IMG/VR virus record: IMGVR_UViG_3300050821_005889
Reading direction: 5' to 3' (one strand)
Length of the DNA: 64,000 nucleotides
Source: a virus
Shown: positions 1 to 55,889 of the stretch, piece after piece
Layout: each line of letters starts with the position of its first letter
Numbering within the stretch: the first letter of the stretch is position 1
Notes under the pieces: generated by a model
Seen by the model: only the letters and a program-made list of their open reading frames with translations
Told to the model about the DNA's origin: nothing
Databases searched by the model: none
Position numbers and translations under genes: made by a program

Positions 1-119
1 CCGTCGCCGTTGCCGTCGCCGTAGCCGTTGCCGTTGCCGTAGCCGTCGCCGTAGCCGTTGCCGTTGCCGTCGCCGTAAGTATTTTGGCTATCCTCGAAGT
101 TTACAGCAATCCGCTCCAT
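1..119 (-). CDS. Gly/Asp/Asn/Tyr-repeat protein, N-terminal fragment (continues past window edge)
   Basis: ATG at 119 (minus). Reads MERIAVNFEDSQNTY, then G-D/N/Y dipeptide repeats (YGDGNGNGYGDGYGNGNGYGDGNGDG). A GGC-GAC/AAC/TAC codon repeat fills 1..78. Too short for the ORF track. Confidence 0.4.
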   Translation of the reverse strand, partial: MERIAVNFEDSQNTYGDGNGNGYGDGYGNGNGYGDGNGD

Positions 120-3301: not shown

Positions 3302-3320
3302 CGTTTTAATTTTAAGTTAG

Positions 3321-3416
3321 TGCGGGGAGCTGGAGTCGAACCAGCAAACTATTCACCAACAAACAAAGGAAGTGGAACCTTTCCCATTGGCCGCTTTACC
3401 ATTTGCGTACCCTCGC
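3321..3416 (-). tRNA. non-canonical tRNA-like gene (96 nt), identity unresolved
   Basis: On the minus strand the acceptor GCGAGGG pairs with TCCCCGC at 6 of 7 positions. There is a 3-bp D-arm (CGC-AAATGGTAAA-GCG), a perfect T-arm (GCTGG-TTCGACT-CCAGC) and discriminator A. However, 45 nt lie between the D- and T-arms instead of about 22, so I could not fold a standard 7-nt anticodon loop. Confidence 0.4.
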
Positions 3417-4534: not shown

Positions 4535-5281
4535 TTAATCAATTTTAGACAGCCACACCTTCTTGTTGTTTTTCCAGTTGAAGATAGTTTCAAGCATGGT
4601 AAGGTATTGTTTTACAGAACCGGCATGAACCAATTCTGTTGACATATATTGTAGTTTCTGCATGAATTTATCAAAGTCAAATTCTGGATGTTCTAAGGCA
4701 TGAACCATAGCAAACACAAAGCTGCGCCTTTTGTATCCATCATAGTATTGTTTTATACGATGAATCTTATCGCCAATATCATTGGCTTTCTTTAGTTGGG
4801 TTATCTTAAATGTCCCATTTTCAAATGCCTCTGGAGCTCCCCCCTTTCCTCCTGCCTGCGCCCCGGTGAGAAGGGATAACGAAATCTGGTGGGCAAATCC
4901 ATACTTTTCCTGGAACTCTTTATATTTAACGTAGTCTTCCTTACCTTCATTGATATATCTGTGAAGGTAATCTTCGGCAACCCATTTATCATGGTTGGTA
5001 TTAGCCCTTGTAACCTGTTCTATACCATAGCCTTTTACAATTATAAAGAATACAGGCTTCCCAAGTTGGGCAATGGCAGACAGCCTGTTCTGCCCGTCAA
5101 TAATTTCAAACTTATCATTAACAATGATAGGTATTTGCAACTGCTCTTCCTCTATGGACTTCATGAGCTTTTGAACATGCCGATTGTCAAGTTCCCTGTT
5201 GCCTTTCAGTTTCTTAAAGACTCCATAGTCTTTAGTTTCGAGGACTTTGTTGACCTCCTTGAAGTGTTTAGCTTTTAACAT
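4535..5281 (-). CDS. ParB/Srx-like N-terminal domain protein
   Basis: 248 aa. GNRELDNRHVQKLMKSI ... IIDGQNRLSAI matches the ParB-like nuclease / DGQxR box arrangement. Motif-level call. Confidence 0.6.
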   Translation of the reverse strand: MLKAKHFKEVNKVLETKDYGVFKKLKGNRELDNRHVQKLMKSIEEEQLQIPIIVNDKFEIIDGQNRLSAIAQLGKPVFFIIVKGYGIEQVTRANTNHDKWVAEDYLHRYINEGKEDYVKYKEFQEKYGFAHQISLSLLTGAQAGGKGGAPEAFENGTFKITQLKKANDIGDKIHRIKQYYDGYKRRSFVFAMVHALEHPEFDFDKFMQKLQYMSTELVHAGSVKQYLTMLETIFNWKNNKKVWLSKID

Positions 5282-6788: not shown

Positions 6789-6812
6789 TTTTGCAATCAG
6801 TTAGTTGTTTAC

Positions 6813-6839
6813 GGGAGGGGACTACTATGAACCCCTCCC
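6813..6839 (-). terminator. GC-rich hairpin between early genes
   Basis: GGGAGGGG-11 nt-CCCCTCCC, an 8-bp all-GC stem in the 107-nt gap after 6896..7252. A second hairpin (ACAGGG-8 nt-CCCTGT) sits at 6854..6873. There is no U-tract. Confidence 0.45.
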
Positions 6840-6895
6840 TTCCTCACAATTATACAGGGGCTTGGAACCCTGTAACTCAACTGCAACACAATATC

Positions 6896-8122: not shown

Positions 8123-9025
8123 TTAAGATTCAAAATTATAAGGTTGTCCATCTTTGTAAACCAGGTGGTACCCGGCAGCCACGGCGTCCTTACGATGCAG
8201 TGTTTCATAAACCCCGTCAGGGTTCACATACACTACACTGTGCCACGGGCTGCGTGTGGCCTTTGGACTACGTATCAATTGGAAGGAATATTTTTTCCCG
8301 TTATTAATACTGTTGTGCATAGATAGCCTTACGCTATCCTTAAACTCATGGGCTATAAGGGCAGAGTATGCTTCATTGCGTAACATCATTTCACGGGTCA
8401 GCAACTTTGCCGCCTTGTGTAATTGGTTACGGGATGGAAATTCTTTGACCGCCAGCTCTTCTTCCATGAATATAGACATTCCCCTGTACAGGTAATTAAC
8501 GTCCGGCTCCATCAGGATGCGGCGCTCTAACTCTACAGGTGTGATGCCGAATTGCTCCACTACCTTAGCCCTCATGTTGGCAAGGTGTCCTTGTCCTCCG
8601 TAGAAGTCTCTAAGGTCATACCAGCGAATAGGGGCTACTTTGGCAAGGTCTATTGACCTCTGCTCATAGTCTTCTACTGTGGTGTCTGATATGCCCAGCA
8701 GGTCTGAGAATATAAAGCCATCACTTACGATGGAGATATTCACGCCCGGAGGGTATATCTTTTTGATTGCATCGTTGAACTGCCCGAAGTTTTTCAGTGA
8801 CAGCTCTTCGCCCAGGTCAGGCAGTGTTCCTATTACCTTGTTCCTGGTATTAGCCGATTTCATCGGGTATCCCAGCATGACAAACGGAATAGGTTCCCCT
8901 GTTGTGACCTTTGAGTTTATCTTGTCGGCAAGTACCTGCTTGCCTACGGTCTCAAATTGGTCAATGGGCGTGGGTGGCATCCTAAAGTCCCGGAACGCCT
9001 CCACAATTGATTCTGTTGTGTTCAT
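8123..9025 (-). CDS. isonitrile (isocyanide) synthase, PvcA/IsnA/Dit1 family
   Basis: 300 aa. Family hallmarks appear in the expected order: GEPIPFVMLGYPMKSANTRNKVIGTLPDLGEE; YPPGVNISIVSDGFIFSDLLGISD; RLSMHNS; SPWHSVV. The length also matches the family. Confidence 0.7.
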   Translation of the reverse strand: MNTTESIVEAFRDFRMPPTPIDQFETVGKQVLADKINSKVTTGEPIPFVMLGYPMKSANTRNKVIGTLPDLGEELSLKNFGQFNDAIKKIYPPGVNISIVSDGFIFSDLLGISDTTVEDYEQRSIDLAKVAPIRWYDLRDFYGGQGHLANMRAKVVEQFGITPVELERRILMEPDVNYLYRGMSIFMEEELAVKEFPSRNQLHKAAKLLTREMMLRNEAYSALIAHEFKDSVRLSMHNSINNGKKYSFQLIRSPKATRSPWHSVVYVNPDGVYETLHRKDAVAAGYHLVYKDGQPYNFES

Positions 9026-13575: not shown

Positions 13576-13662
13576 AACTGTTTAGTTAGTTTACACGCCC
13601 CGTGTATCCATTCGGCAGCGTGTGCTCACTATCTTGTTCCGGCTTGCAACGGAGTAAACAGT
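13576..13662 (-). repeat. conserved intergenic element, copy A
   Basis: Minus-strand reading: GTTGCAAGCCGGAACAAGATAGTGAGCACA, then the hairpin CACGC...GCGTG, then AAACTAACTAAAC and the ATG. Roughly two-thirds identical by eye to the core of copy B at 16354..16433. Confidence 0.55.
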
Positions 13663-16353: not shown

Positions 16354-16433
16354 TGTGTTAACAGTTTAGTTAGTTTGCAGCCTTTCGGCTGTGTTCACTA
16401 TTATCATTGCGGACTTACAACCGCTAACTGTTT
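16354..16433 (-). repeat. conserved intergenic element, copy B
   Basis: Minus-strand reading: GTTGTAAGTCCGCAATGATAATAGTGAACACA, then the hairpin CAGCC-GAAA-GGCTG, then AAACTAACTAAAC. Matches copy A in order and spacing. Confidence 0.55.
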
Positions 16434-17661: not shown

Positions 17662-18003
17662 TTAGTTTATGTAATTAGATTTATTGAGTTTAGGTAATAG
17701 TCCAACGGGATAAGAATCAAAGGATTGCAAGGCACCTGCGAGGGAATTAAGCCCTTTGGATATGCGCATAGCATAGCGCTCCAAATGGAACACACCTTTA
17801 CTATCTTGCCACAGTACCCATTTGCCCGAACGTCCGTTATTGACGCGGGTATGAGTAGTCACACGGGCAACGTTAGCCCTCTTTGATTTAGGTATATTTC
17901 GGTATATACCTACATTGTGTTGAATGTCCATAAATGTAAAAATTAGCATAACAGGCGCGGTTTGACCGTAGTTACTATATGCTTCTATGCCGAATCTTAT
18001 CAC
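17662..18003 (-). CDS. hypothetical protein; first gene of the leftward block, start uncertain
   Basis: The track start at 18003 is GTG. In-frame ATGs occur at codons 19 and 25. Confidence 0.5.
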   Translation of the reverse strand: MIRFGIEAYSNYGQTAPVMLIFTFMDIQHNVGIYRNIPKSKRANVARVTTHTRVNNGRSGKWVLWQDSKGVFHLERYAMRISKGLNSLAGALQSFDSYPVGLLPKLNKSNYIN

Positions 18004-18429
18004 GGGAGTATCTTGACAATTAACTAAGAATAGTTAACCATGTATAGAAGGTATTTAACAGCCTGTTACGTCTGACTTTATTTATTCCGTTACGGGTGGA
18101 AGGTGAATATATCGACCTTTTAACCTACCTTTGGTTATTGCGCGTTCGGTGGAATCGGACTTGCTTATCCCCTACATTGTGGAACTTAGTTCCTTGCGGC
18201 CTTTTTGCTCTTTATCCTATATACAAGGTATATAGACTTATTACAGTAACGGGAAACGTCCGAAACGAGGCACCCGCTTTGAAACCGTATATTTAGTAGT
18301 TAAGAAAAGGATAGGTACATTTGTAAGCTATTTAACCGCCCTCTTAATGTCCGTTATCATAGTCGAACGATGCAAACATAGTATAGGGAGGTGTACAAAA
18401 AGTAGTACAATAAGTTAGAATGATATATT

Positions 18430-18463
18430 TAATCGACTAACGGAATAATATAATCGACGAACG
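18430..18463. repeat. direct repeat TAATCGAC[TG]AACG x2 with 21-nt period, in AT-rich DNA
   Basis: Copies at 18430..18442 and 18451..18463. The nearby CACAAAACACAAAACA is a second tandem repeat. Confidence 0.6.
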
Positions 18464-18619
18464 TATATATAAATCAGTTAAGCCATATAAGGCACAAAAC
18501 ACAAAACAGATCAAAAATGAGGTTTCCGGTATATTAGACAAGGTGTATAGAAGAATGGAATAGCATTAACCATGCCAAACATATTAAAACTTATGCGTCC
18601 TATATACAGTACAGTGTGT

Positions 18620-19061
18620 GAATAAGTTACCTACCTAATGGCAGGCAGGTACCTATATATTAGTACTCACTTATAATCCCAATACACACAAAGGACTACC
18701 CATTTTCTACGTCCAAAGGACTACCCCGAAAGCGCTACCATGTGCCACAACAAACCAGCTACCTACAAAAGGGTAACCACAAAGTTACTCATGTATGACA
18801 AAGTGGCAGGATGTAGGAAGGAAAGGAAGGGTAACCTTTTCCCCCTATGTTCCACGTGAAACAGGTTACCTAATTCCTTGTAACCCAATGAGTTACCCAA
18901 TTATAGGTAGTGTTTCACACGTGGTTACCAATGACCTGTTAGACATTTATGACTACCCATAAATAGGTAGGACATGACATAATGTCAGGTAGCCGAAAAG
19001 GAGTAGCCATGACATGGTAGGGCACACAAAAAAAAGAAGTACCCCGAAAGGACTACCCCCA
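18620..19061. repeat. iteron-like array of TACC-core motifs
   Basis: I counted about 17 forward [TCA]TACC/TAACC motifs and about 6 reverse GGTAG motifs in roughly 440 nt. AAAGGACTACCC occurs three times (18690, 18715, 19047). TACCCCGAAAG occurs twice (18722, 19040). GGTNACC occurs four times (18772, 18830, 18864, 18923). Confidence 0.7.
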
Positions 19062-19503
19062 CAGGAACCACTTTACCCCTCCCCCCGGTAGCCGGGGTGG
19101 GATATAGGAGTATCGGACTCCCGGACAGGGACATGAGCCTTACTCCCTCATAGCCTCCCACCCATTCATGCACCTTCCTTATCCTTCCTTGAGGGTCACA
19201 AGCCTTTTCATTGACGCAGGGCTGTCATAACCTTTCCATATCCCGGCACACCTACGGTAAAGGACACCTTACCCCCTGCAGGGGTACCTGGGGGTCACAC
19301 AAGGACGTATAGGGGTCATGGGTATTGAGATGGACAGAAGCAAATCACCTGTGCCCAGGTCGTCTGTAAGGGGACGTAGGAGGGGAATAGAAAAGGATAT
19401 TGTCTCTATTATTGTAGCTAAGAGACGAAACCTCATAAAGTATTGATTATCAGTATAGGTCAGTTCAATCGAACTTGATTTTTGTTCAATAGTTCTGAAC
19501 AAG

Positions 19504-19534
19504 TTTGATGTTAGTAACTATTTTAATAGTTTTG
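19504..19534 (+). promoter_or_regulatory. Bacteroidota-type promoter for the rightward block
   Basis: TTTG (19504..19507), 19 nt, then TAGTTTTG (19527..19534). Sits 20 nt upstream of the ATG at 19555. Confidence 0.5.
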
Positions 19535-19554
19535 GTATAGTTCAATAATATTGT

Positions 19555-20151
19555 ATGATGATTAGTAATAAATACAGCACAAAGCCGGTATATGTGAATA
19601 ATCCATTTTCTAAGGAAGCAGTTAGTTCTTTTAAATCGGACTGGATAGATTACAGGGAGAAAGGAGTAAGGATGATAGTAGAGGAGACCGGAGAGGTTAT
19701 GGACTTTAAAAAGCCGGAAAGCAGCGTCCAGGTCTTTGAGGATACAGCAAGGTTTGTTAAGTTCTATGCAGGCTTCGGGGAGCAGTTCCGTAAACTAAAA
19801 GAAAGCGGTCAGAGCATCTTCTGGTTTATATTTCTTAAACGCCTTAAGCGCAACAGGGACTTTGTGTATATAGACATGGCTGAATGCGTAGCGTACTGCG
19901 GATGGAAAAGCAAGACCGGGTTCTACACCGGGCTGTGTGACCTCATTGAACATGATTTCATTGCTAAAAAAGCGCAGGAGGAAAACTGTTTCTTTATTAA
20001 TATCACCCTGTTCTTCAATGGTAGCCGCAAACACTTACAGGTGTTCAGGGATTGGGTAACAGCAGAGAAAGCTAAGGTTCCGCCGGAAGTAAATAAATTA
20101 CAAGATAAAAATACAGGTGGGCAATTGGAATCAGAGAAGGGGGGTGAGTGA
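19555..20151 (+). CDS. winged-helix DNA-binding protein, replication-initiator-like
   Basis: 198 aa. The pattern FVKFY...LKESGQSIFWFIFLKRLKRNRDFVYIDMAECVAYCGWKSKTGFYTGLCDLIEHDFIAKK...FFINITLFFNGSR is typical of wHTH Rep/MarR-like phage and plasmid proteins. First gene next to the iteron array. Confidence 0.45.
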   Translation: MMISNKYSTKPVYVNNPFSKEAVSSFKSDWIDYREKGVRMIVEETGEVMDFKKPESSVQVFEDTARFVKFYAGFGEQFRKLKESGQSIFWFIFLKRLKRNRDFVYIDMAECVAYCGWKSKTGFYTGLCDLIEHDFIAKKAQEENCFFINITLFFNGSRKHLQVFRDWVTAEKAKVPPEVNKLQDKNTGGQLESEKGGE

Positions 20152-23097: not shown

Positions 23098-23706
23098 ATG
23101 AAAGCACTAAGACGAAAAGACAATAAAGAATGGGTTGTTTTTAGTGACGCCGGATTCTTTGTATCTAAGTATCCAGATTCGCTTGCGGACGAAGCTACTA
23201 TGGAAGGCATTAAAGAATACATAGAAGTATTAGGAGAGCCACTTAGCCAGGAGCTTATTGAATCTCTTGAGCAATACGAAATAGTGGATGTGGAGTTTTG
23301 GGTGCCTGCGGATAACCCGGTACCGGATAGTATTGAAGGAGACATACGAAGCAATCAGGATGAACTACTATTTAAGGGTTACACAAAAATGCCTGTGTAT
23401 GACAAGAAAGCAGATGATGAAAAATCAATGCTTGACATATTGTTGAAGTGGCTTGCGGATGCCAGTGCTTTTGGTTTTGGAAAAGTTCTTATATCGTTTG
23501 ACTCAAAGGATAAGGCTGAAAAATTCAGAACTACACTTAAACAGGAGTTCAAACCTATACGAACACACAAAACTAAAGGTGACGATGTTATGGTTCATGG
23601 ACTTGATAGCCTTTGGTTTGGTAGAGTTGTATTATATTATCCTAATGACAGCGAATGTGACGACCAGATTATTGAAGGAGACATACGAAACGAAATACAT
23701 CTATGA
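23098..23706 (+). CDS. hypothetical protein (202 aa) with internal exact 20-nt repeat
   Basis: TATTGAAGGAGACATACGAA occurs at 23331..23350 and 23670..23689, encoding IEGDIR both times. Confidence 0.65.
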   Translation: MKALRRKDNKEWVVFSDAGFFVSKYPDSLADEATMEGIKEYIEVLGEPLSQELIESLEQYEIVDVEFWVPADNPVPDSIEGDIRSNQDELLFKGYTKMPVYDKKADDEKSMLDILLKWLADASAFGFGKVLISFDSKDKAEKFRTTLKQEFKPIRTHKTKGDDVMVHGLDSLWFGRVVLYYPNDSECDDQIIEGDIRNEIHL

Positions 23707-24032
23707 CCATCGGCGACAGTCCATTTAATTATTCTAAATCGCCATCACAGGCCGCAGCATTGCCTAACTCACGCAAGTTGGAAGACCTGTTTTTCAAAGG
23801 CTACTTCACTATGAAGCCATCCGCCAAAGATGTCCTGATGTATATTGTTGGGGTATTACCTGCTGGTAAGGACTATGTAGAACTCAAGGCTCCAAAGGTC
23901 ATGAAGTCCACCGGCATCAAATCCAATGAGACCTATTACCGCAGCCTTAAGACCCTCATGGAAAGGGGGTATATTGCCAGGTCGCTAAAGCAGGGGACTT
24001 ACTTCATTAACCTCAATAAAATGTTTATATGA
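23703..24032 (+). CDS. winged-helix DNA-binding protein (109 aa)
   Basis: VLMYIVGVLPAGKDYVELKAPKVMKSTGIKSNETYYRSLKTLMERGYIARSLKQGTYFINLNKMF. Same wHTH pattern as the 19555..20151 product. Confidence 0.5.
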   Translation: MTIGDSPFNYSKSPSQAAALPNSRKLEDLFFKGYFTMKPSAKDVLMYIVGVLPAGKDYVELKAPKVMKSTGIKSNETYYRSLKTLMERGYIARSLKQGTYFINLNKMFI

Positions 24033-38090: not shown

Positions 38091-39886
38091 TGGCTGACGA
38101 TTTAAAATATAATGACATAGGGGAAGACCAGGTAGAAGACTCTAATGACTCAGAGGTAATTACCGGGCAGGACACCCCTGCGGAAGCATACGGTGCCGGT
38201 GTCGCCGCTTACCAGCAGGCTGCAAGAAAAAATAAAGACAACGGCTCAACTCCGTATAGCCCCATAGCCGCAGCCCTTTCCAGAACACGCAACAGTGCGC
38301 AACAGATTCCGGGAGTCCCCGGAAGTATTTCTACAGACCCTGGTACACCAGGGATAACAAGAGACCAGGCATATCCTTCCGCTCCTGTAAGGATGCAGGA
38401 TTTGCCGGGAAGGTATTTTGGTGCCACTCCTATATTTCTTGGTGGCCAGCCACTGTATCCTGTATCATTGGAAGAAGCCCGTAGGCGTTCCAATAATGAT
38501 TACATGGCGTCACAGGAACAGGCAAGGCAACAGAATGAAAACACGCTGTTCACAAATCTTACAAGGCAAAAGGTAGCCCCTGCATACCAGGAAAAGGCGG
38601 ATAAGATGCTGGATGACCTTTATGATGATTACTCAAAAACATTTGCGCAGAAAGGAAGATATGGTGCAGTAGCCGCTTATAACGACCCTAATAGCCCTGA
38701 GTTCAAAGAGTTTACACAGAAGTACCATAACTACCTGCAATCTACAGAGGCCATCAATCACATGGACACTCTTTTGTCGCAGGCGCAACAACGTCCACCC
38801 GATGAATTATCCCCCGCTACCAAAGCCCAAATTATAAAATTCCAGACCGGAGGGTTTATGAACCCGGACGGCACTGTTGATACACAGACCCTACAAAAGT
38901 CTTATGTTGACCTGGCTAAATATATGGGCTATGATGGTATTATAAAAAGCATTGCACCCTATATAGCAAAGGATAGTGAATCATTTTTCCAGCAAGGAGC
39001 CAAAGATGCAAACGGGAAAGAAATATCTCCTCTTGATAATGACCACCAGTTTATAACAGAGGTTAAGAAAAATCCAAATTGGGACAAGCTCATTGATAGT
39101 AAGTATGTTCCTATGCTGCTTAGTCATGCCGGATTAAACCCTGCTCTCAATGACCCTAAAGCAGCGCACGATTATCTTAAGCAGATACTTCCTGAGTTCG
39201 TAGAAAAGCATTTCTATGATGTGCAAAGGTCTTCTGCAAGTGCCGGAGAAAATAAGGTGGCCAATGAAGGTAATTGGGTAGTTGATTTTGCCAACCAGGT
39301 AAGAGGCAGTAATGTAGATGGAGCCGTTCACACCGGCGGAGAAAATGATAACAACCCTCGCGGTGTGATGATGCAGGCTCCGGGAGACATGTCTACCAAT
39401 ATCACTAATCCTAATTTCTTAAAATATATTGTAACAGGACAGGATGCCAACGGCAACGCTATTACAGCCCAGGACACCCGCAAAACAATAGTTAATCCTA
39501 TATCCGGTTTATGGAAGGACAATTCCACCGGAGATATATATAAAGTTCCTGCTGCTGCCAAAAATCCAACTACAGGAGATATTGATTGGGGGCAGGTACG
39601 CACTCCGGCTAATAAAGTAACTAATATGTGGACGGATGTAATAGTTCCGTATTACAGAAGTGTAGGAGGGACTGGGGCAGAAACTAAATTGACCCAGATT
39701 CAAAAGAAAATGTGGACACAGCAACCGCAGGAAGCACAGGCTCTTGGTATTCCTCCACTCCCTAAAGGTGGAAATGCAGCCCCGGCAGCATCTGCCCCGG
39801 CTAAAACTATAGTAAGAACAGGAGTTGACAAGACAGGGAAAAAAGTAGTTCAATATTCAGACGGTACTGTAGGATATGCCCAATAA
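38090..39886 (+). CDS. hypothetical virion-module protein (598 aa)
   Basis: TAATG overlap with the upstream gene. Confidence 0.7.
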   Translation: MADDLKYNDIGEDQVEDSNDSEVITGQDTPAEAYGAGVAAYQQAARKNKDNGSTPYSPIAAALSRTRNSAQQIPGVPGSISTDPGTPGITRDQAYPSAPVRMQDLPGRYFGATPIFLGGQPLYPVSLEEARRRSNNDYMASQEQARQQNENTLFTNLTRQKVAPAYQEKADKMLDDLYDDYSKTFAQKGRYGAVAAYNDPNSPEFKEFTQKYHNYLQSTEAINHMDTLLSQAQQRPPDELSPATKAQIIKFQTGGFMNPDGTVDTQTLQKSYVDLAKYMGYDGIIKSIAPYIAKDSESFFQQGAKDANGKEISPLDNDHQFITEVKKNPNWDKLIDSKYVPMLLSHAGLNPALNDPKAAHDYLKQILPEFVEKHFYDVQRSSASAGENKVANEGNWVVDFANQVRGSNVDGAVHTGGENDNNPRGVMMQAPGDMSTNITNPNFLKYIVTGQDANGNAITAQDTRKTIVNPISGLWKDNSTGDIYKVPAAAKNPTTGDIDWGQVRTPANKVTNMWTDVIVPYYRSVGGTGAETKLTQIQKKMWTQQPQEAQALGIPPLPKGGNAAPAASAPAKTIVRTGVDKTGKKVVQYSDGTVGYAQ

Positions 39887-42800
39887 TAAAAAACCAGACC
39901 CGCAGGATATACAGTGGGACGCTCCGCATCCAAGTGATGTAACCTGGGATACACCCGCCACACCCCAGCCAGCTCCTGCCATGCCTGCACCTGCCCAGCA
40001 GGGAGGCAACATTGTACCTATGTGGTCTCATCAACAGGAGCCTGCACCTAATGCGCCGCTTGCATCTACTAACTATGGCGTGTCAGAAACAAATCAAAAT
40101 GCACCTGCGCAGCCCCCTTTAGAGTCTTCGGTTCCCGGTCAGCCAGATGCAACAGACAAGGCTCTTAAAAGGGCTAACGATTTTATAGACCAGGCGTCTG
40201 AGTTTTTACCGGAAGGAAATGTAAAGGATGTATCAACGCTGGCAGCAAAAGGTGCATTAGGAGCTGTCCAACAATTTAAGCAAGGTTCAGAACAGGTAGC
40301 ACAGGCCGGAGGTGTTCAGCAGGGAGCACAAGCTATTCCCACTTCGCAGAATGCACAGGTAGAACAGGATGCCTCAAAAGAAAATGTCGCATATAGTGGC
40401 GTAGCCACAATCGTAGGTCTTGGCAAAATGCTTATGGGCGTAGGGGCTCTTACTGTACCTGAAATTAATGCCTGGAACTATGGGTCTGCGGCATTGGCAC
40501 AGTCCTCTCCGGGCGTAGCCACTCAGGTTAATAACTTCTTTTCTTCTAAAGCAGAAGATGACCCAAATTCTCCCAACTTCGGTAAGGTGATTATTCCTAC
40601 AGGGGCGGCTCCTATAATCCTTGACTCTAATAAGCCGGGACAAAAAGCTGTCCTGGAGTTCCTTGATTTCCTTCCGCAGTTAGTACTTGGTGGTATGATT
40701 GCCGAAGGCGTTTCGGTAGACCAGGCAAACGAAATAGCATCCAAGATTAAAAAAGGAGAGGTGCTCACCCCGCAGGAAGATGCCATTGCCGCAAAAGGAA
40801 CACAAACATATCTGTCAGACCCTAAGAATATTATCACCAATGAGACCCTGGGCAAAATAAAGCCCGACCTGTCAGATGGTAAGAAGGTAGCCGTGGCTCC
40901 TCTTATTGAACAAAAGCAGGCACTGGAACAACGTAATGTAGGGCTACTTGAGTCTAAGGGCAAACTGGATTCTTCTTTTCATGATGACGTGGATAAAGAA
41001 GTTGCCGATAACGAGAAACAAATAGCTACCTTAACCCAACAAATAAAAACTAAGGCAAATGAAAAAGAAACTACGCCAGGCACTGCGCAAGGTGCCAATA
41101 CCCAAGCCGACAACAGACCCGGCGAGAGCCAAGAGGGAGAAGGAGTGGGACAGCAGCAATTACAGGGAGGAGTACAAGGACAACAGCCTGGAGCAGATAC
41201 AGGCACCCAACCTGATACCCAAGAAACTGTTGCGTCGAATGAAAAACCAGGGATAATCAATGCCCCTACAAAGCAAACGTCAGATGCGCTGGATGTTCAA
41301 GAACCATCCGCAGATGGCAAAGGAATGGGCGTCGGAGACACCCAACCTCAAGGAACTACCGGAAAAGAAGAAGGTAGCGGAAACGCTAAAGGCGCACCGA
41401 AAGAAGAAATAAAACTGGAGTCACATCCTGGTTTTGAAGCCCCTGACCTCAAGGACTATGAAGGGAAAGATTCAGACCTGTTCCCGGAAAGGGAATGGGC
41501 TAACAATCCTGACCGCGTTACCATGCGTGATGGCAATGAAGTAGGAACAACTTTCCGACAACTGGCCAAGCAGACCCAGGATGGAATGAAAGATGTTAAG
41601 GACAATGCGCCTGATAACACTCTTATCACCACTCATTCCAAGAATGGCAGGATGATTAATGCCTTAAGAAAAGTGGGTGATGATATAGACCTGGATAGTG
41701 ATGAAGGAATAAAAAAAGTAGCTAAGGCATATCTTGCAGAACCCGATATAGAAAAGGGGGAGCCCCAAACCACAAAACTTGATAATGGAAAAACAGTGCA
41801 TGTCGCTATGCACGGAACTACCGAGGACGACCTGAAAGATTTTAATTCCGGGCAGAGTCCAGTTAATCTTTCTAAGGAAGGCATCAAGGACAGCAAGGAT
41901 ACAGCACAGGCAGTTGAAGATAAAAACATAAGCCATATTATCAGCTCTCCTACAGAGAGGGCAATGAAGACGTCTAAGATTATCCAGGAGCATCTTAATA
42001 AACAGATAGCTGAACAGAAATCCAAAGAGCCTGTCATGTCCGCAGAGGACTTTGATAAACAAGGGCTCAACTACGGCCTACAGGAAGATGGTACACGTAT
42101 GGAACCTGAGTTAAACATCAAGTTCAAAAAACCTATTACCAACAACCAGATGCGCCGCATCAACGAGGTGATGGATTTACCTAAAGGCGCATTATCCGAA
42201 GATGGTAAGGAGCTTACTATAACCAACGATTCTAAAACAAAGACCCATGACCAATTCATTGCCGACGTCGCAGTCCTCAAAAACAAACTCAATGAGTTCA
42301 AGCGAGTTCCAACAGAAATTAACCAACGTGTTAGGAGACTGGCTTCCGAAGTTGAAGGGGGCACCGAAGCTGCTACACAGCCAGAAACCGGCAACAAGCC
42401 AGCCGAAACTGAACCAGCAAACACCAACACAGTCAATACCGGCAGTGAAGGCGGACAACCTGAACCAGTCCCCGGCGAACCCACTGGGACAACTGACGCC
42501 GCCAGACCAAACCAAGAATCAGAACCTGTAACACAGGCTGCTGGCTTTGCCGGTGGCGCAGAGCCTCCACAACCACCAGATGTGACAAGAGAGGGAGTAT
42601 ATGACGATACGCCTGACTATAATAAATCTTCTTCACCTGTACAGGATTTCCTTAATGATACAAGAAGCGCCCCTAAGTTTGAACGAGATATAGCACAGAA
42701 TGTAAAACAGCTCAACGGTATCAATAAGGCCAATACGCTCCGCGCTGTGAAGCTCATGGAAATGCTGCCGGATAAATTTAAAGACCCGGTACTCCAGGAG

Positions 42801-45152
42801 AATGTATATCACCACATGGAAGACCCAACACTGACACTTACCGCAGACGAGATGGAGTTCAGGGATAAATATGTGGTTCCGGTGCTTAATGAGATTCAAG
42901 GGCTGTATCGTAAACTGGAAAAAATAGACCCTGAATCTGCGGCGGCGGCAATGAAAGATGCTGTTAATTATTTCCCGCGTCTGGCTAAAGACAAGCAGGG
43001 AATCATTGACCGTATAATAAATGGAACTAAATACATAACCGGCGGCGGCTTATTAGGTAAAACAGCATCTTCTCTTAAAAGCCGTATTTATAAAGCCCTT
43101 ACAGATAATAATGGCAACAGGACGCTTGTAACTATGAAGGATGGAAGGGTTACGGCTTTGCATGGATTTGACGAAGATGGCAATTCTGTAACACAAGACC
43201 TGGGTGGATTTAAAAGAAGTGATAAAGGTCTTAGTACAAAAGAACTGAGAGATAAACAACTTAATGATGACCTGGGCTATGATAAAAAGATGGGCAAATT
43301 ACAGGCGGAGAAGAAAAATATCCAACGCTTCGCTGATGACCCTAAAGGACAAAGAAGGCTTGATTACATTGAGAAGAAAATTAATGACCTCAATGCAGCG
43401 AAAGACAAGATAAATGAACATTATGACGGTGTGCAAAAAGTAGATGACCTTAATGCAGAACGCACAGACCTTCGCAATTCATTAATTACTATAAAGGATA
43501 AAGAGCAAAGACAACAAGTGCAGGCTCGTATTGCAGACCTTCGGAAACAATCAGAAGACCTGGAAAACCAGATGCCTAAATACTGGGTAGACAAAAACGG
43601 TAAGTTTTATTCTATAGGTGAAGCTACAACCAAAGAGATTGAAGAAAAGTCCCCTACTCAATATTATCATACCCCATTTGCAAACGTGATGTCATCCTAT
43701 CTTGACTTACAGAGGGCTGACACAGCAAATACATTTATTGACCACTTTAAAGAATCTCCAGAATTTAGTAAGATAGGCGTTCCTAAAGGCGACAAAACGG
43801 TTCCGGGAGATTGGCGCGAGGTATTACCTATACAATTTAAAGGATATGTTTTCGACCCTAAAACGGCGGCTAACTTAGATTTACTTTATCGCAATGGTAA
43901 AGCCGACCCACTTCAATCCCTTACTAATATAAATACATTCTTTCGGGATACTATAGTGCTTGGGCCGGGCGTAAAGCACTGGTATAATATTGCTGACCAA
44001 TGGATAAAACAGGGAGGTTTAGTTACAAGGTTAACTAACCCGGTACGCACCACTAAGGCCATGATGAAAGCGTTCCATGATGTATCTACGCAGAGCCCGG
44101 ATTATTTTAAAGCCCTTGAGAATGGAGCAGGGTTAATGTACCGGGAAACGCAGGACGCTTCTAACCTGCTGCTTAAAGTAGCGCTGGAGCAAAAGAATCA
44201 GACATGGTTCCAGAAGCTATCTGACAAGATGGGGTATGCTAATCCAGAAACATTATTTGAAGCACTTCGCAGCACTTCTCATAAATCTGCATTTTACGTA
44301 AATGATATGTTGGTTATGCAGGCTATAAACGAAGAGGTTGCAAAAGGTAAGCCGTGGAGCGAAGCTGTAAAGGAGGTTCATAAATATCTGCCGGATTACC
44401 AGATACCGGCTCAGGTGCTTGGCAGCGAGAACCTTGCAAAAGTCCTTCGCAACCCCAACCTGTTAACATTCGGCTCTTACCATTATAACATCATGGACTC
44501 ATACGCTAATATGGCAAACGACCTGGGCAGGGCAATGAGTAATTCAGGTATGAGTGCTGCAGATAGGGGGCTTGCTGTCGACCGGGTGGCCACTGCTGCA
44601 TTTATGCACTTTGCTTTCTATGCAGGACTTACGGCTCTGTATCATGCTGTTGGGGGAGATAAGGATAAAAAGATAGGGTCTTCCGGTGGCACTAAGTTCA
44701 TGGATGATGCTATAGATTTCATTAAAGGGAATAAGAATTTAAGACAGTTTGTTCAGGGGTATTTCATGCCAGCCGTAGGAACACAGGCTGCCGCAGAGCT
44801 GATAACCAATACCAAATTATCTCCTTACGAATCCGGTAATATATATACCCCCACCGATGTAAACAACCATCCCGGCGAAGCGCTTAAAGATATAGGCAAA
44901 TACCTTGAAACTAAAGTAGCACCACAGACATCACAGCTACAAAGCGGCAAACAGACCGCCGGTGATTTTATACAAGACCAATTACTCAATACAAAAATTG
45001 ACCGTACCGACCAGGAGCAGAAGTTTATGCAGCTCCTTCATGAAAGAGACCAGATAAACCAGAAGGTACATGACCTTAAGAAAAAGGGGAAGTATTCGGA
45101 GGCCACACAACTTCAACAACAGTATAACCAGGACTTGAATAATGCCAGGTAA
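39876..45152 (+). CDS. giant multidomain protein (1758 aa), candidate internal/ejection protein with embedded histidine-phosphatase-like segment
   Basis: Pro/Gln/Glu low-complexity N-terminal third. HVAMHGTTEDD...LSKEGIKDSKDTAQAV...ISHIISSPTERAMKTSKII (nt 41796..42000) resembles the RHG...SSPxxRAxxT phosphoglycerate-mutase-like pattern but has MHG. Central region is coiled-coil. Hydrophobic stretch near the C-terminus. Confidence 0.6.
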   Translation: MPNNKKPDPQDIQWDAPHPSDVTWDTPATPQPAPAMPAPAQQGGNIVPMWSHQQEPAPNAPLASTNYGVSETNQNAPAQPPLESSVPGQPDATDKALKRANDFIDQASEFLPEGNVKDVSTLAAKGALGAVQQFKQGSEQVAQAGGVQQGAQAIPTSQNAQVEQDASKENVAYSGVATIVGLGKMLMGVGALTVPEINAWNYGSAALAQSSPGVATQVNNFFSSKAEDDPNSPNFGKVIIPTGAAPIILDSNKPGQKAVLEFLDFLPQLVLGGMIAEGVSVDQANEIASKIKKGEVLTPQEDAIAAKGTQTYLSDPKNIITNETLGKIKPDLSDGKKVAVAPLIEQKQALEQRNVGLLESKGKLDSSFHDDVDKEVADNEKQIATLTQQIKTKANEKETTPGTAQGANTQADNRPGESQEGEGVGQQQLQGGVQGQQPGADTGTQPDTQETVASNEKPGIINAPTKQTSDALDVQEPSADGKGMGVGDTQPQGTTGKEEGSGNAKGAPKEEIKLESHPGFEAPDLKDYEGKDSDLFPEREWANNPDRVTMRDGNEVGTTFRQLAKQTQDGMKDVKDNAPDNTLITTHSKNGRMINALRKVGDDIDLDSDEGIKKVAKAYLAEPDIEKGEPQTTKLDNGKTVHVAMHGTTEDDLKDFNSGQSPVNLSKEGIKDSKDTAQAVEDKNISHIISSPTERAMKTSKIIQEHLNKQIAEQKSKEPVMSAEDFDKQGLNYGLQEDGTRMEPELNIKFKKPITNNQMRRINEVMDLPKGALSEDGKELTITNDSKTKTHDQFIADVAVLKNKLNEFKRVPTEINQRVRRLASEVEGGTEAATQPETGNKPAETEPANTNTVNTGSEGGQPEPVPGEPTGTTDAARPNQESEPVTQAAGFAGGAEPPQPPDVTREGVYDDTPDYNKSSSPVQDFLNDTRSAPKFERDIAQNVKQLNGINKANTLRAVKLMEMLPDKFKDPVLQENVYHHMEDPTLTLTADEMEFRDKYVVPVLNEIQGLYRKLEKIDPESAAAAMKDAVNYFPRLAKDKQGIIDRIINGTKYITGGGLLGKTASSLKSRIYKALTDNNGNRTLVTMKDGRVTALHGFDEDGNSVTQDLGGFKRSDKGLSTKELRDKQLNDDLGYDKKMGKLQAEKKNIQRFADDPKGQRRLDYIEKKINDLNAAKDKINEHYDGVQKVDDLNAERTDLRNSLITIKDKEQRQQVQARIADLRKQSEDLENQMPKYWVDKNGKFYSIGEATTKEIEEKSPTQYYHTPFANVMSSYLDLQRADTANTFIDHFKESPEFSKIGVPKGDKTVPGDWREVLPIQFKGYVFDPKTAANLDLLYRNGKADPLQSLTNINTFFRDTIVLGPGVKHWYNIADQWIKQGGLVTRLTNPVRTTKAMMKAFHDVSTQSPDYFKALENGAGLMYRETQDASNLLLKVALEQKNQTWFQKLSDKMGYANPETLFEALRSTSHKSAFYVNDMLVMQAINEEVAKGKPWSEAVKEVHKYLPDYQIPAQVLGSENLAKVLRNPNLLTFGSYHYNIMDSYANMANDLGRAMSNSGMSAADRGLAVDRVATAAFMHFAFYAGLTALYHAVGGDKDKKIGSSGGTKFMDDAIDFIKGNKNLRQFVQGYFMPAVGTQAAAELITNTKLSPYESGNIYTPTDVNNHPGEALKDIGKYLETKVAPQTSQLQSGKQTAGDFIQDQLLNTKIDRTDQEQKFMQLLHERDQINQKVHDLKKKGKYSEATQLQQQYNQDLNNAR

Positions 45153-55484: not shown

Positions 55485-55570
55485 AAAATGGCGGGGACAT
55501 CTATGGCGGGGCTATAGATTCATAAGGGTACCCTGATAATGCAAGAGAGCAATCTCTTTTTTGGAAGAAG

Positions 55571-55615
55571 GCCGAAAGGTGGTTCCGTCAGACGTACCAT
55601 TCTTTCGGCTTTTTT
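55571..55615 (+). terminator. rho-independent terminator
   Basis: GCCGAAAG-23 nt-CTTTCGGC followed by TTTTTT. Lies inside the 5' part of track ORF 55539..55889. Confidence 0.6.
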
Positions 55616-55618
55616 GTG

Positions 55619-55626
55619 TATATTTG
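55619..55626 (+). promoter_or_regulatory. -7 box TATATTTG, 5 nt from the ATG
   Basis: TATATTTG-TAGAC-ATG(55632). Confidence 0.35.
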
Positions 55627-55631
55627 TAGAC

Positions 55632-55889
55632 ATGATAGTCAGAAAAGAGAAGGATTTGGCAGATATAATAAAAGCTGCCATGAAGGCCAGCAAGCATAAT
55701 AAACTCAGTTTATCTTCTGCATCCGGCGTACAGCGCTCAGGTATCTATGGGTACCTGTCCGGTAAAAAATCTATTACCATGAGGACGTTTGTAAAGCTGA
55801 TGGCTGCTATGAATTACGAGGTGGATATGAAGTTGATTCTTCTGCCGCCTGTTGTTAAGCAGGCAGAACCAGAACAACAAAAAGTTTAA
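55632..55889 (+). CDS. XRE-type HTH transcriptional regulator (85 aa)
   Basis: LADIIKAAMKASKHNKLSLSSASGVQRSGIYGYLSGKKSITMRTFVKLMAAM. The start was moved to the ATG downstream of the terminator. Confidence 0.55.
   Translation: MIVRKEKDLADIIKAAMKASKHNKLSLSSASGVQRSGIYGYLSGKKSITMRTFVKLMAAMNYEVDMKLILLPPVVKQAEPEQQKV

Follow-up and report, generated by a model that had tools for sequence, protein, structure and literature searches.

A gene-free divergent region beside a RepL-family gene as a probable replication origin and early-control module of an uncultured Bacteroidota phage

A gene-free region separates two divergent gene blocks

The virus record IMGVR_UViG_3300050821_005889 of the IMG/VR collection provided the 64,000-nucleotide stretch of DNA studied here (hereafter the window). 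A leftward and a rightward block of genes diverge in it from a long intergenic region (positions 17932–19554), and the rightward block opens with a gene for a predicted RepL-family replication initiator (19555–20151). This region and the initiator gene are the subject of the present analysis.

Between positions 18003 and 19555, the only open reading frames (ORFs) in the ORF list are 33–77 aa long, and most of them start with GTG or TTG. Using a codon-usage log-odds score trained on the 26 longest ORFs of the window, we obtained −0.24 to +0.12 bits per codon for these frames, where most of the real small genes of the leftward block reach +0.15 to +0.54. ENA contig k141_4960875 (72,060 bp) represents the same genome and carries independent gene calls. 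These leave window positions 17932–19554 empty, a gap of 1,623 nt; within the ~45 kb covered by the ENA calls, the next largest gap measures ~360 nt and contains a tRNA-Met. The first leftward gene (17662–17931, minus strand) codes for 89 aa from an ATG at 17931, and a GTG at 18003 would extend it to 113 aa. The ENA call L002 1106–1375 maps to 17662–17931, and the gene scores +0.117 bits per codon. Hence, the interval from 17931, where the leftward block probably has its ATG, to the ATG at 19555, with which the rightward block starts, contains no credible gene. With short ORFs only, low codon scores, and nothing from the independent caller, the ORF-free divergent region described in the original prediction is confirmed. 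No DNA resembling the region or its surroundings was found in GenBank phages or PLSDB plasmids, and no close relatives of the two flanking proteins were found in IMG/VR.

The adjoining gene encodes a predicted RepL-family initiator

The first gene of the rightward block (19555–20151, plus strand) encodes a protein of 198 aa. A word-indexed search of 5.8 billion proteins returned no close relative but the protein itself, a profile version of this search added little, and a sequence search of the PDB gave no match. An exhaustive phmmer search, by comparison, retrieved 671 distant homologues with ~30% identity. Among the best 80 of these 671, 24 match the Pfam family RepL (PF05732, best E = 2.8e-11) and 6 match Rep3_N. 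In tblastn searches of plasmids, the protein was similar to genes annotated as RepA or “replication/maintenance protein RepL” (27–31% identity, E = 5e-9 to 1e-7), carried by 2.7-kb mobilisable plasmids of Bacteroides, Parabacteroides, and Phocaeicola and by small plasmids of Empedobacter, Elizabethkingia, and Hymenobacter. The initiator, the plasmid RepA, and the family consensus were also used as tblastn queries against GenBank phages, without any match.

An AlphaFold2 model built from the family alignment reached a predicted local distance difference test score (pLDDT) of 87.6, as against 38.5 for the single-sequence model, and the predicted structure has a winged-helix fold. Compared with the PDB by Foldseek, it gave weak matches (best E = 0.028), almost all of them to winged-helix DNA-binding proteins, namely MarR/CAP-type regulators. 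Compared with predicted viral structures (BFVD), its best matches were proteins of crAss-like phages (E = 1.7e-8 to 7e-5), and some of the BFVD matches are named RepL-domain or plasmid replication initiation protein. RepL has been classed among the winged-helix replication initiators (10.1101/2024.09.03.610885). By homology, then, the gene at 19555–20151 encodes a RepL-family winged-helix initiator related to the RepA/“RepL” of the 2.7-kb Bacteroides plasmids.

A short winged-helix paralogue of this protein (109 aa; 23703–24032, plus strand) was detected with the family profile (hmmsearch E = 2e-19). It is devoid of the C-terminal FFNGxR motif and has a weak PHROG match to “replication initiation protein” and a weak Pfam RepL match (E = 0.12). 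The paralogue may have a regulatory role or bind the origin as a second protein. It sits 3.5 kb downstream of the first RepL-like gene, an arrangement that parallels the two repL copies of crAssphage.

Direct repeats, a palindrome, and AT-rich blocks

The region contains two AT-rich blocks. The left one (18390–18560; 27–34% GC vs 42% for the genome) is a candidate unwinding element and contains two copies of AATCGAC(T/G)AACG placed 21 nt apart (18427–18463) as well as 2.3 copies of CACAAAA (18493–18508). The AATCGAC core occurs at only two sites in the whole window, 18431 and 18452, both in this block. An AT-rich left part with short direct repeats had been proposed, and it is indeed found at 18400–18560. 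The right block (19400–19554) is poorer still in GC (20–32% vs 42%), and by composition both blocks have the AT-richness expected of the unwinding element of an iteron origin.

The array of direct repeats lies between these blocks (18683–19071, plus strand). The 12-mer AAAGGACTACCC is found exactly at 18690–18701, 18715–18726, and 19047–19058; these are its only three occurrences in the window, all on the plus strand. About four degenerate copies, at 18729, 18947, 18997, and 19033, share the orientation of the exact ones. The 8-mer GACTACCC is likewise confined to the region, with four copies there and none in the rest of the window. The central iteron array of the original prediction is therefore real in sequence, and the AAAGGACTACCC repeats show one feature expected of an iteron origin, at least three direct repeats in a single orientation near an initiator gene.

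Elements of the GGTTACC type form a second cluster (18768–18930), with forward copies at 18864 (GGTTACCTAAT), 18891 (AGTTACCCAAT), and 18923 and two in reverse (18772 and 18830). These 160 nt account for four of the 13 GGTTACC/GGTAACC sites of the window, and the shorter TACC/GGTA cores number 22 in 18600–19100, ~4 times denser than the background of 10.3 per kb. Some of these elements form an imperfect 21-nt inverted repeat (18852–18872 and 18904–18924) with a 31-nt spacer. As single-stranded DNA, the palindrome folds with z = −3.09, and in sliding windows the folding z stays near zero except over this palindrome, where it reaches −2.4 to −3.6 on both strands. The equally low values on the two strands point to symmetry at the DNA level and not to an RNA. 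Each arm of the palindrome carries one CACGTG (18853 and 18918), and these are the only two in the 64 kb, where ~10 would be expected from base composition. This rarity may reflect avoidance of a restriction site except at a functional site.

Further right, a GC-rich block (19000–19340; 50–66% GC) changes from C-rich to G-rich at ~19276. It contains a small hairpin (CCCCGG-TAG-CCGGGG, 19083–19097), the palindrome CCCCTGCAGGGG (19273–19284), and inverted TACCCC/GGGGTA cores. The hairpin and palindromes of the GC-rich cluster proposed earlier thus exist, but the segment 19050–19450 as a whole shows no excess folding over shuffled sequences (z = +1.57).

Divergent promoters and an operator-like repeat

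A Bacteroidota-type promoter faces the initiator gene (19504–19534, plus strand), with a −33 TTTG (19504–19507), a spacer of 19 nt, and the −7 element TAGTTTTG (19527–19534), ending 20 nt before the ATG at 19555. A candidate leftward promoter of the same type, TTTG-N15-TATGTTTG (18373–18399, minus strand), has a shorter spacing and would possibly give the first leftward gene a leader of ~430 nt. The full motif TTTG-N15-22-TAnnTTTG occurs six times in the 64 kb, both strands included, and two of the six are in the region. Another copy (25177) lies ~26 nt upstream of a gene start (ATG 25235), so the motif marks gene starts in this genome. The Bacteroidota-type promoter that had been noted upstream of the rightward block is thus present, and its motif is rare in the window. 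Scans for sigma-70 promoters and for terminators remained at chance level.

The inverted repeat TGTTCA-N7-TGAACA (19483–19501) abuts the −33 element, is unique in the window, and is a putative operator. Three of the 14 GTTCAAT sites of the window (19463, 19484, and 19540) are also found here, within 85 nt.

The layout recurs at loci of distant homologues

As the relatives were too distant for their non-coding DNA to be aligned, we compared instead the architecture around initiator homologues, whose loci were found with a degenerate DNA pattern for FINxxxFFNGxR. On the NCBI metagenomic contig JAWVHB010000671.1 (71,217 bp; locus L022), the homologue is first in a rightward block, opposite leftward small genes, and the two are separated by a 992-nt ORF-free gap containing three copies of TTACCCAAA and paired TTCCCA-N-TGGGAA palindromes. 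The IMG/VR contig IMGVR_UViG_3300033075_001328 (72,152 bp; loci L023/L019) has a divergent gap of 865 nt. Two Logan contigs have, respectively, a divergent gap of 920 nt containing four copies of a 26-nt repeat (L003) and at least 900 gene-free nt with exact 22-nt repeats (L004). Of two further IMG/VR contigs, one has a gap of 427 nt with tandem 21-nt repeats (L012) and the other only 128 nt (L010). Finally, a Bacteroides plasmid of 2.78 kb (L006) carries a 22-nt repeat three times, 60–190 nt upstream of repA.

Several of these regions share the same order of composition, C-rich, G-rich, AT-rich, and then the gene. The layout and the presence of repeats recur in these relatives, none of whose non-coding DNA could be aligned. 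Three genomes are also close in size, 71,217 bp (L022), 72,152 bp (L023/L019), and 71,919 bp for the present one, and in each the RepL homologue heads a divergent block next to a gap of ~0.9–1.6 kb. In the 12–20 kb compared for these three ~72-kb genomes, no shared protein besides the initiator was detected. The same holds for the whole set of loci, which have only the initiator in common, so the initiator and its upstream region behave as a module.

Aligned pairwise, the region and the L022 gap scored overall no better than shuffles. The alignment contained a 14-nt exact match, which led us to a conserved upstream element. In the present genome, this element is AATCAATACTTTA (19436–19448, minus strand, 119 nt upstream of the initiator ATG), which fits the IHF consensus WATCAANNNNTTR. 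The same consensus, usually as ATCAACTACTTA, is found in the homologue loci on the strand opposite the gene. The IHF-like element TAAGTAGTTGAT lies 31–321 nt upstream of the gene, in the same orientation, at 7 of the 15 loci including the present one. Against a background frequency of 7e-5 per nt and strand for the IHF consensus, which has four matches in the entire window, a post-hoc binomial test gives P of ~1e-8 or below (the calculation as run for 8 of the 15 loci gave 4e-10). The TAAGTAGTTGAT element is a candidate for the core site in the RepL family, which is poorly understood. We also considered TTCC-N-GGAA palindromes, which lie upstream of three homologues; the region contains a single one (18086–18102).

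Circular assembly of a 71,919-bp genome

The ENA contig starts at window position 18896 and ends at 19036. This is an overlap of 141 nt in an assembly made with k = 141, so the genome assembles circularly (71,919 bp) and was opened at an arbitrary point. The window’s own contig has its break at a different place, within a hexamer repeat, (GCCGTN)n. Window positions 1–75 start within this tandem repeat, which is 39 nt longer there than in the otherwise identical ENA assembly, suggesting a coding repeat of variable length that likely caused the contig break.

We rebuilt the full circle from the window and the missing 7.9 kb to compute the cumulative GC skew. As the origin proposal would have it, the global minimum (19276) falls inside the region, but it coincides with the change of gene orientation; the maximum is at 68574. 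The skew is thus consistent with an origin in the region.

The portal protein is distantly and weakly similar to that of the crAss-like phage cr10_1, and almost no other phage protein searched against the family libraries had a match. Among ~50 predicted proteins screened, including most of the larger ones of the window, no polymerase, helicase, or primase was recognized. The virus is most likely a new, crAss-related Bacteroidota phage of ~72 kb whose genome assembles as a circle.

A probable iteron-type origin with early control

Since the adjoining gene codes for a plasmid-type, RepL/RepA-like initiator, the region is most likely an origin together with divergent early promoters. More precisely, we consider that 17932–19554 is probably an iteron-type replication origin and early-control module working as follows. 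The initiator would be expressed from the rightward promoter (19504–19534) and would bind the iterons (18683–19071), possibly with an IHF/HU-type protein at the WATCAANNNNTTR element (19436–19448). It would then open one of the adjacent AT-rich blocks, 18390–18560 or 19400–19554, and recruit the host replisome. Feedback control could be exerted through the TGTTCA-N7-TGAACA repeat at the −33 element, through the 109-aa paralogue, or through both. The region would also fire the leftward early operon, so that both divergent early operons would be driven from it. An origin and/or a master early control region had been suggested originally, and this view gains support from the RepL-family gene, the layout at homologue loci, the conserved cis element, and the divergent promoters.

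Several observations weigh against this interpretation. Origin activity itself is something that we infer. The 198-aa protein has no direct match in Pfam, NCBIfam, or PHROG even at E ≤ 5, and its family link is transitive, as the matches come through homologues: it is homologous to RepL-matching and plasmid replication proteins, but no family model recognizes it directly. The iterons are short (a 12-nt core, or 19 nt at 74–84% identity) and irregularly spaced (25, 14, 232, and 100 nt), where iteron origins are expected to have repeats of 17–22 bp phased at ~22 bp. For DnaA boxes (TTATCCACA with at most one mismatch), the window has 22 matches where 21 are expected, and they do not cluster in the region. 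Nor does the skew count as independent evidence, because its extremes coincide with switches of gene strand and are placed asymmetrically (19.3 vs 68.6 kb). The region of 1.6 kb is longer than an origin needs, given that the gaps at homologue loci range from 128 nt to ~1 kb. Lastly, the mechanism of RepL-type plasmids is poorly characterized, and their pSN2 family is filed as rolling-circle (PMC5703833).

The region could instead serve transcriptional control only, with divergent early promoters and operator arrays on which the 198-aa and 109-aa proteins would act as regulators, the origin being elsewhere. This is the rival that we take most seriously, though we regard it as rather unlikely. 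It would account for the outward orientation of the two promoter motifs in the region, out of the six in the window, for the unique inverted repeat next to the −33 element, for the MarR/CAP-type regulators among the PDB matches, weak as their E-values are, and for the GC skew, which gene orientation explains. Conversely, the protein family is annotated as, or homologous to, plasmid replication proteins, and its member is the only candidate initiator of the 2.7-kb plasmids. Repeats and the conserved element are found upstream of the gene even on plasmids with two genes, and promoters and an origin are compatible with each other. Transcriptional control alone thus accords less well with the plasmid homologues than does an origin.

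In podoviruses, terminal repeats typically lie in non-coding, repeat-rich regions where the early genes begin, and IHF-type sites occur at cos sites. A packaging site or physical genome ends (a direct terminal repeat, pac, or cos) collapsed in a circular assembly would therefore suit both the position of the region and its IHF-like element, and one assembly is broken inside it (18896–19036). However, this break is an overlap of exactly 141 nt on a “k141” contig, the signature of an arbitrarily opened circle, and the window’s own contig breaks at another place, in the hexamer tandem repeat. We judge such a terminus improbable.

Unrecognized small protein genes or decayed pseudogenes are a much weaker proposal. 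Tiny genes abound in this phage, and one 55-aa ORF with an ATG start (18795–18962, plus strand) scores +0.117 bits per codon, overlapping the low end of the real small genes. This ORF, however, overlaps the palindrome and iterons and is absent from the independent gene calls, all the remaining ORFs of the region score at most +0.07, and the DNA of the region has no similarity to phage or plasmid records. Hidden genes are accordingly disfavoured, with very little probability left to them. One or more long structured non-coding RNAs, an alternative raised in the original prediction, are just as doubtful: the long ORF-free stretch with a GC-rich core in a genome of 42% GC and the three twister ribozymes found elsewhere in this phage would suit them, but no Rfam match was obtained at E ≤ 5 except a chance miRNA, the GC-rich segment folds no better than its shuffles, and the sole window of low z (18800–19000) is equally low on both strands, as befits a DNA palindrome.

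Comparison with known replicons

Among the closest known systems are the 2.7-kb mobilisable plasmids of Bacteroides (such as NZ_CP036545.1 and CP103175.1), which we assign to the pBI143 type (U30316) on size, host, and gene content. Like the phage, they have a Bacteroidota host, a homologous initiator (28–31% identity, E = 5e-9 to 1e-7), and direct repeats and a TAAGTAGTTGAT / WATCAANNNNTTR element upstream of rep. The phage differs by its 72 kb and by a non-coding region of ~1.6 kb instead of a few hundred nt, and the repeats are unrelated, AAAGGACTACCC in the phage and TTTTCCATATTGGAAAATCAG in the plasmids. pBI143 encodes mobA and repA only (10.1101/2023.03.25.534219).

In crAssphage (Carjivirus communis), repL heads the plus-strand block and is immediately preceded by a predicted origin. 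Another, divergent repL copy exists in the genome, and the GC skew switches at the block boundary; the origin is itself only predicted, from OriFinder and coverage (PMC10983915). The present phage shares with crAssphage a RepL-type gene at the head of a strand block, a candidate origin upstream of it, a second RepL-like gene, and a skew switch at the block boundary, and with the crAss-like phages a weakly similar portal and the best structural matches of its initiator. It differs in that tblastn detects no similarity to any GenBank phage and in that its 72 kb contain almost no recognizable genes. As the same arrangement has already been predicted for crAssphage, the layout described here is a new example only, unusual mainly in its length and composite structure.

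Iteron-type theta origins (pSC101, R6K, F, and P1 oriR; Rep_3) resemble the region in having an initiator gene beside an array of direct repeats, an AT-rich block, an IHF-type site, and an inverted repeat at the rep promoter, and 6 of the 80 best homologues of the initiator match Rep3_N. In contrast to these origins, the repeats here are irregular 12-nt units, DnaA boxes are not enriched, and the inverted repeat near the promoter does not resemble the iterons in sequence. The lytic replicon of phage P1 (RepL/oriL) also uses a protein named RepL for replication, and its origin lies inside repL. No repeat array or AT-rich island was found inside 19555–20151, and the candidate origin of the present phage is upstream of the gene.

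The initiators of the pSN2-family staphylococcal plasmids belong to the same Pfam family as the 198-aa protein, by transitive homology, and are likewise small helix-turn-helix proteins (~18–23 kDa). These little-studied RepL plasmids have traditionally been regarded as rolling-circle, with a double-strand origin (dso) and a single-strand origin (ssoA) (PMC5703833). They differ from the phage in host phylum and in this classification, with its dso and ssoA. Compared with the orientation-specific single-strand origin hairpin of rolling-circle plasmids, the only strong fold in the region is a symmetric DNA palindrome.

The analysis provides a concrete origin candidate for an uncultured Bacteroidota phage with almost no recognizable genes and connects its replication with the RepL/RepA replicons found in crAss-like phages and in abundant plasmids of gut Bacteroides. 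We put forward, tentatively and as a possibility that may well prove wrong, that a long ORF-free origin with a RepL/RepA initiator heading a divergent block is a portable cassette with a TAAGTAGTTGAT core, carried both by the lineage of 2.7-kb cryptic Bacteroides plasmids and by several ~72-kb phages that are otherwise unrelated and have almost no recognizable genes, which would enable phage–plasmid persistence as proposed for crAssphage. Should 17932–20151 prove capable of autonomous replication, Bacteroidota vectors would gain a new origin, and the idea of a plasmid-like persistence of crAss-related phages would be supported.

Other genes and RNA elements of the phage

Two further products, possibly of maintenance or regulatory genes, bear on a plasmid-like lifestyle. 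The first (4535–5281, minus strand) is a ParB_N/GmrSD_N-like protein that matches the PHROG “ParB-like partition protein” (E = 5e-34) and Pfam below threshold. A centromere reading of this locus was dropped, the protein being better described as GmrSD_N/ParB_N-like, below threshold. The second (55539–55889, plus strand) is an HTH_3 protein of the Cro/CI type.

Three matches to type-P3 twister ribozymes (6797–6879, 13578–13661, and 16361–16431, minus strand) score 41.2–47.6 bits, exceeding the Rfam gathering cutoff. They fill gaps that separate small genes of the leftward operon, one in each gap, and are oriented like these genes, which suggests self-cleavage of a polycistronic early transcript. 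A tRNA-like gene with a two-base “gt” anticodon was detected by ARAGORN at 3320–3394 (minus strand) in a 398-nt intergenic gap, where no Rfam tRNA reaches the gathering threshold.

A protein of 1,758 aa (39876–45152, plus strand) contains a histidine phosphatase domain (His_Phos_1, residues 646–713, E = 1.4e-12), the rest being without family. Finally, a 300-aa protein (8123–9025, minus strand) matches the Pfam family DIT1_PvcA (isocyanide synthase / pyoverdine-dityrosine biosynthesis) with E = 4e-65, an unusual gene for a phage.

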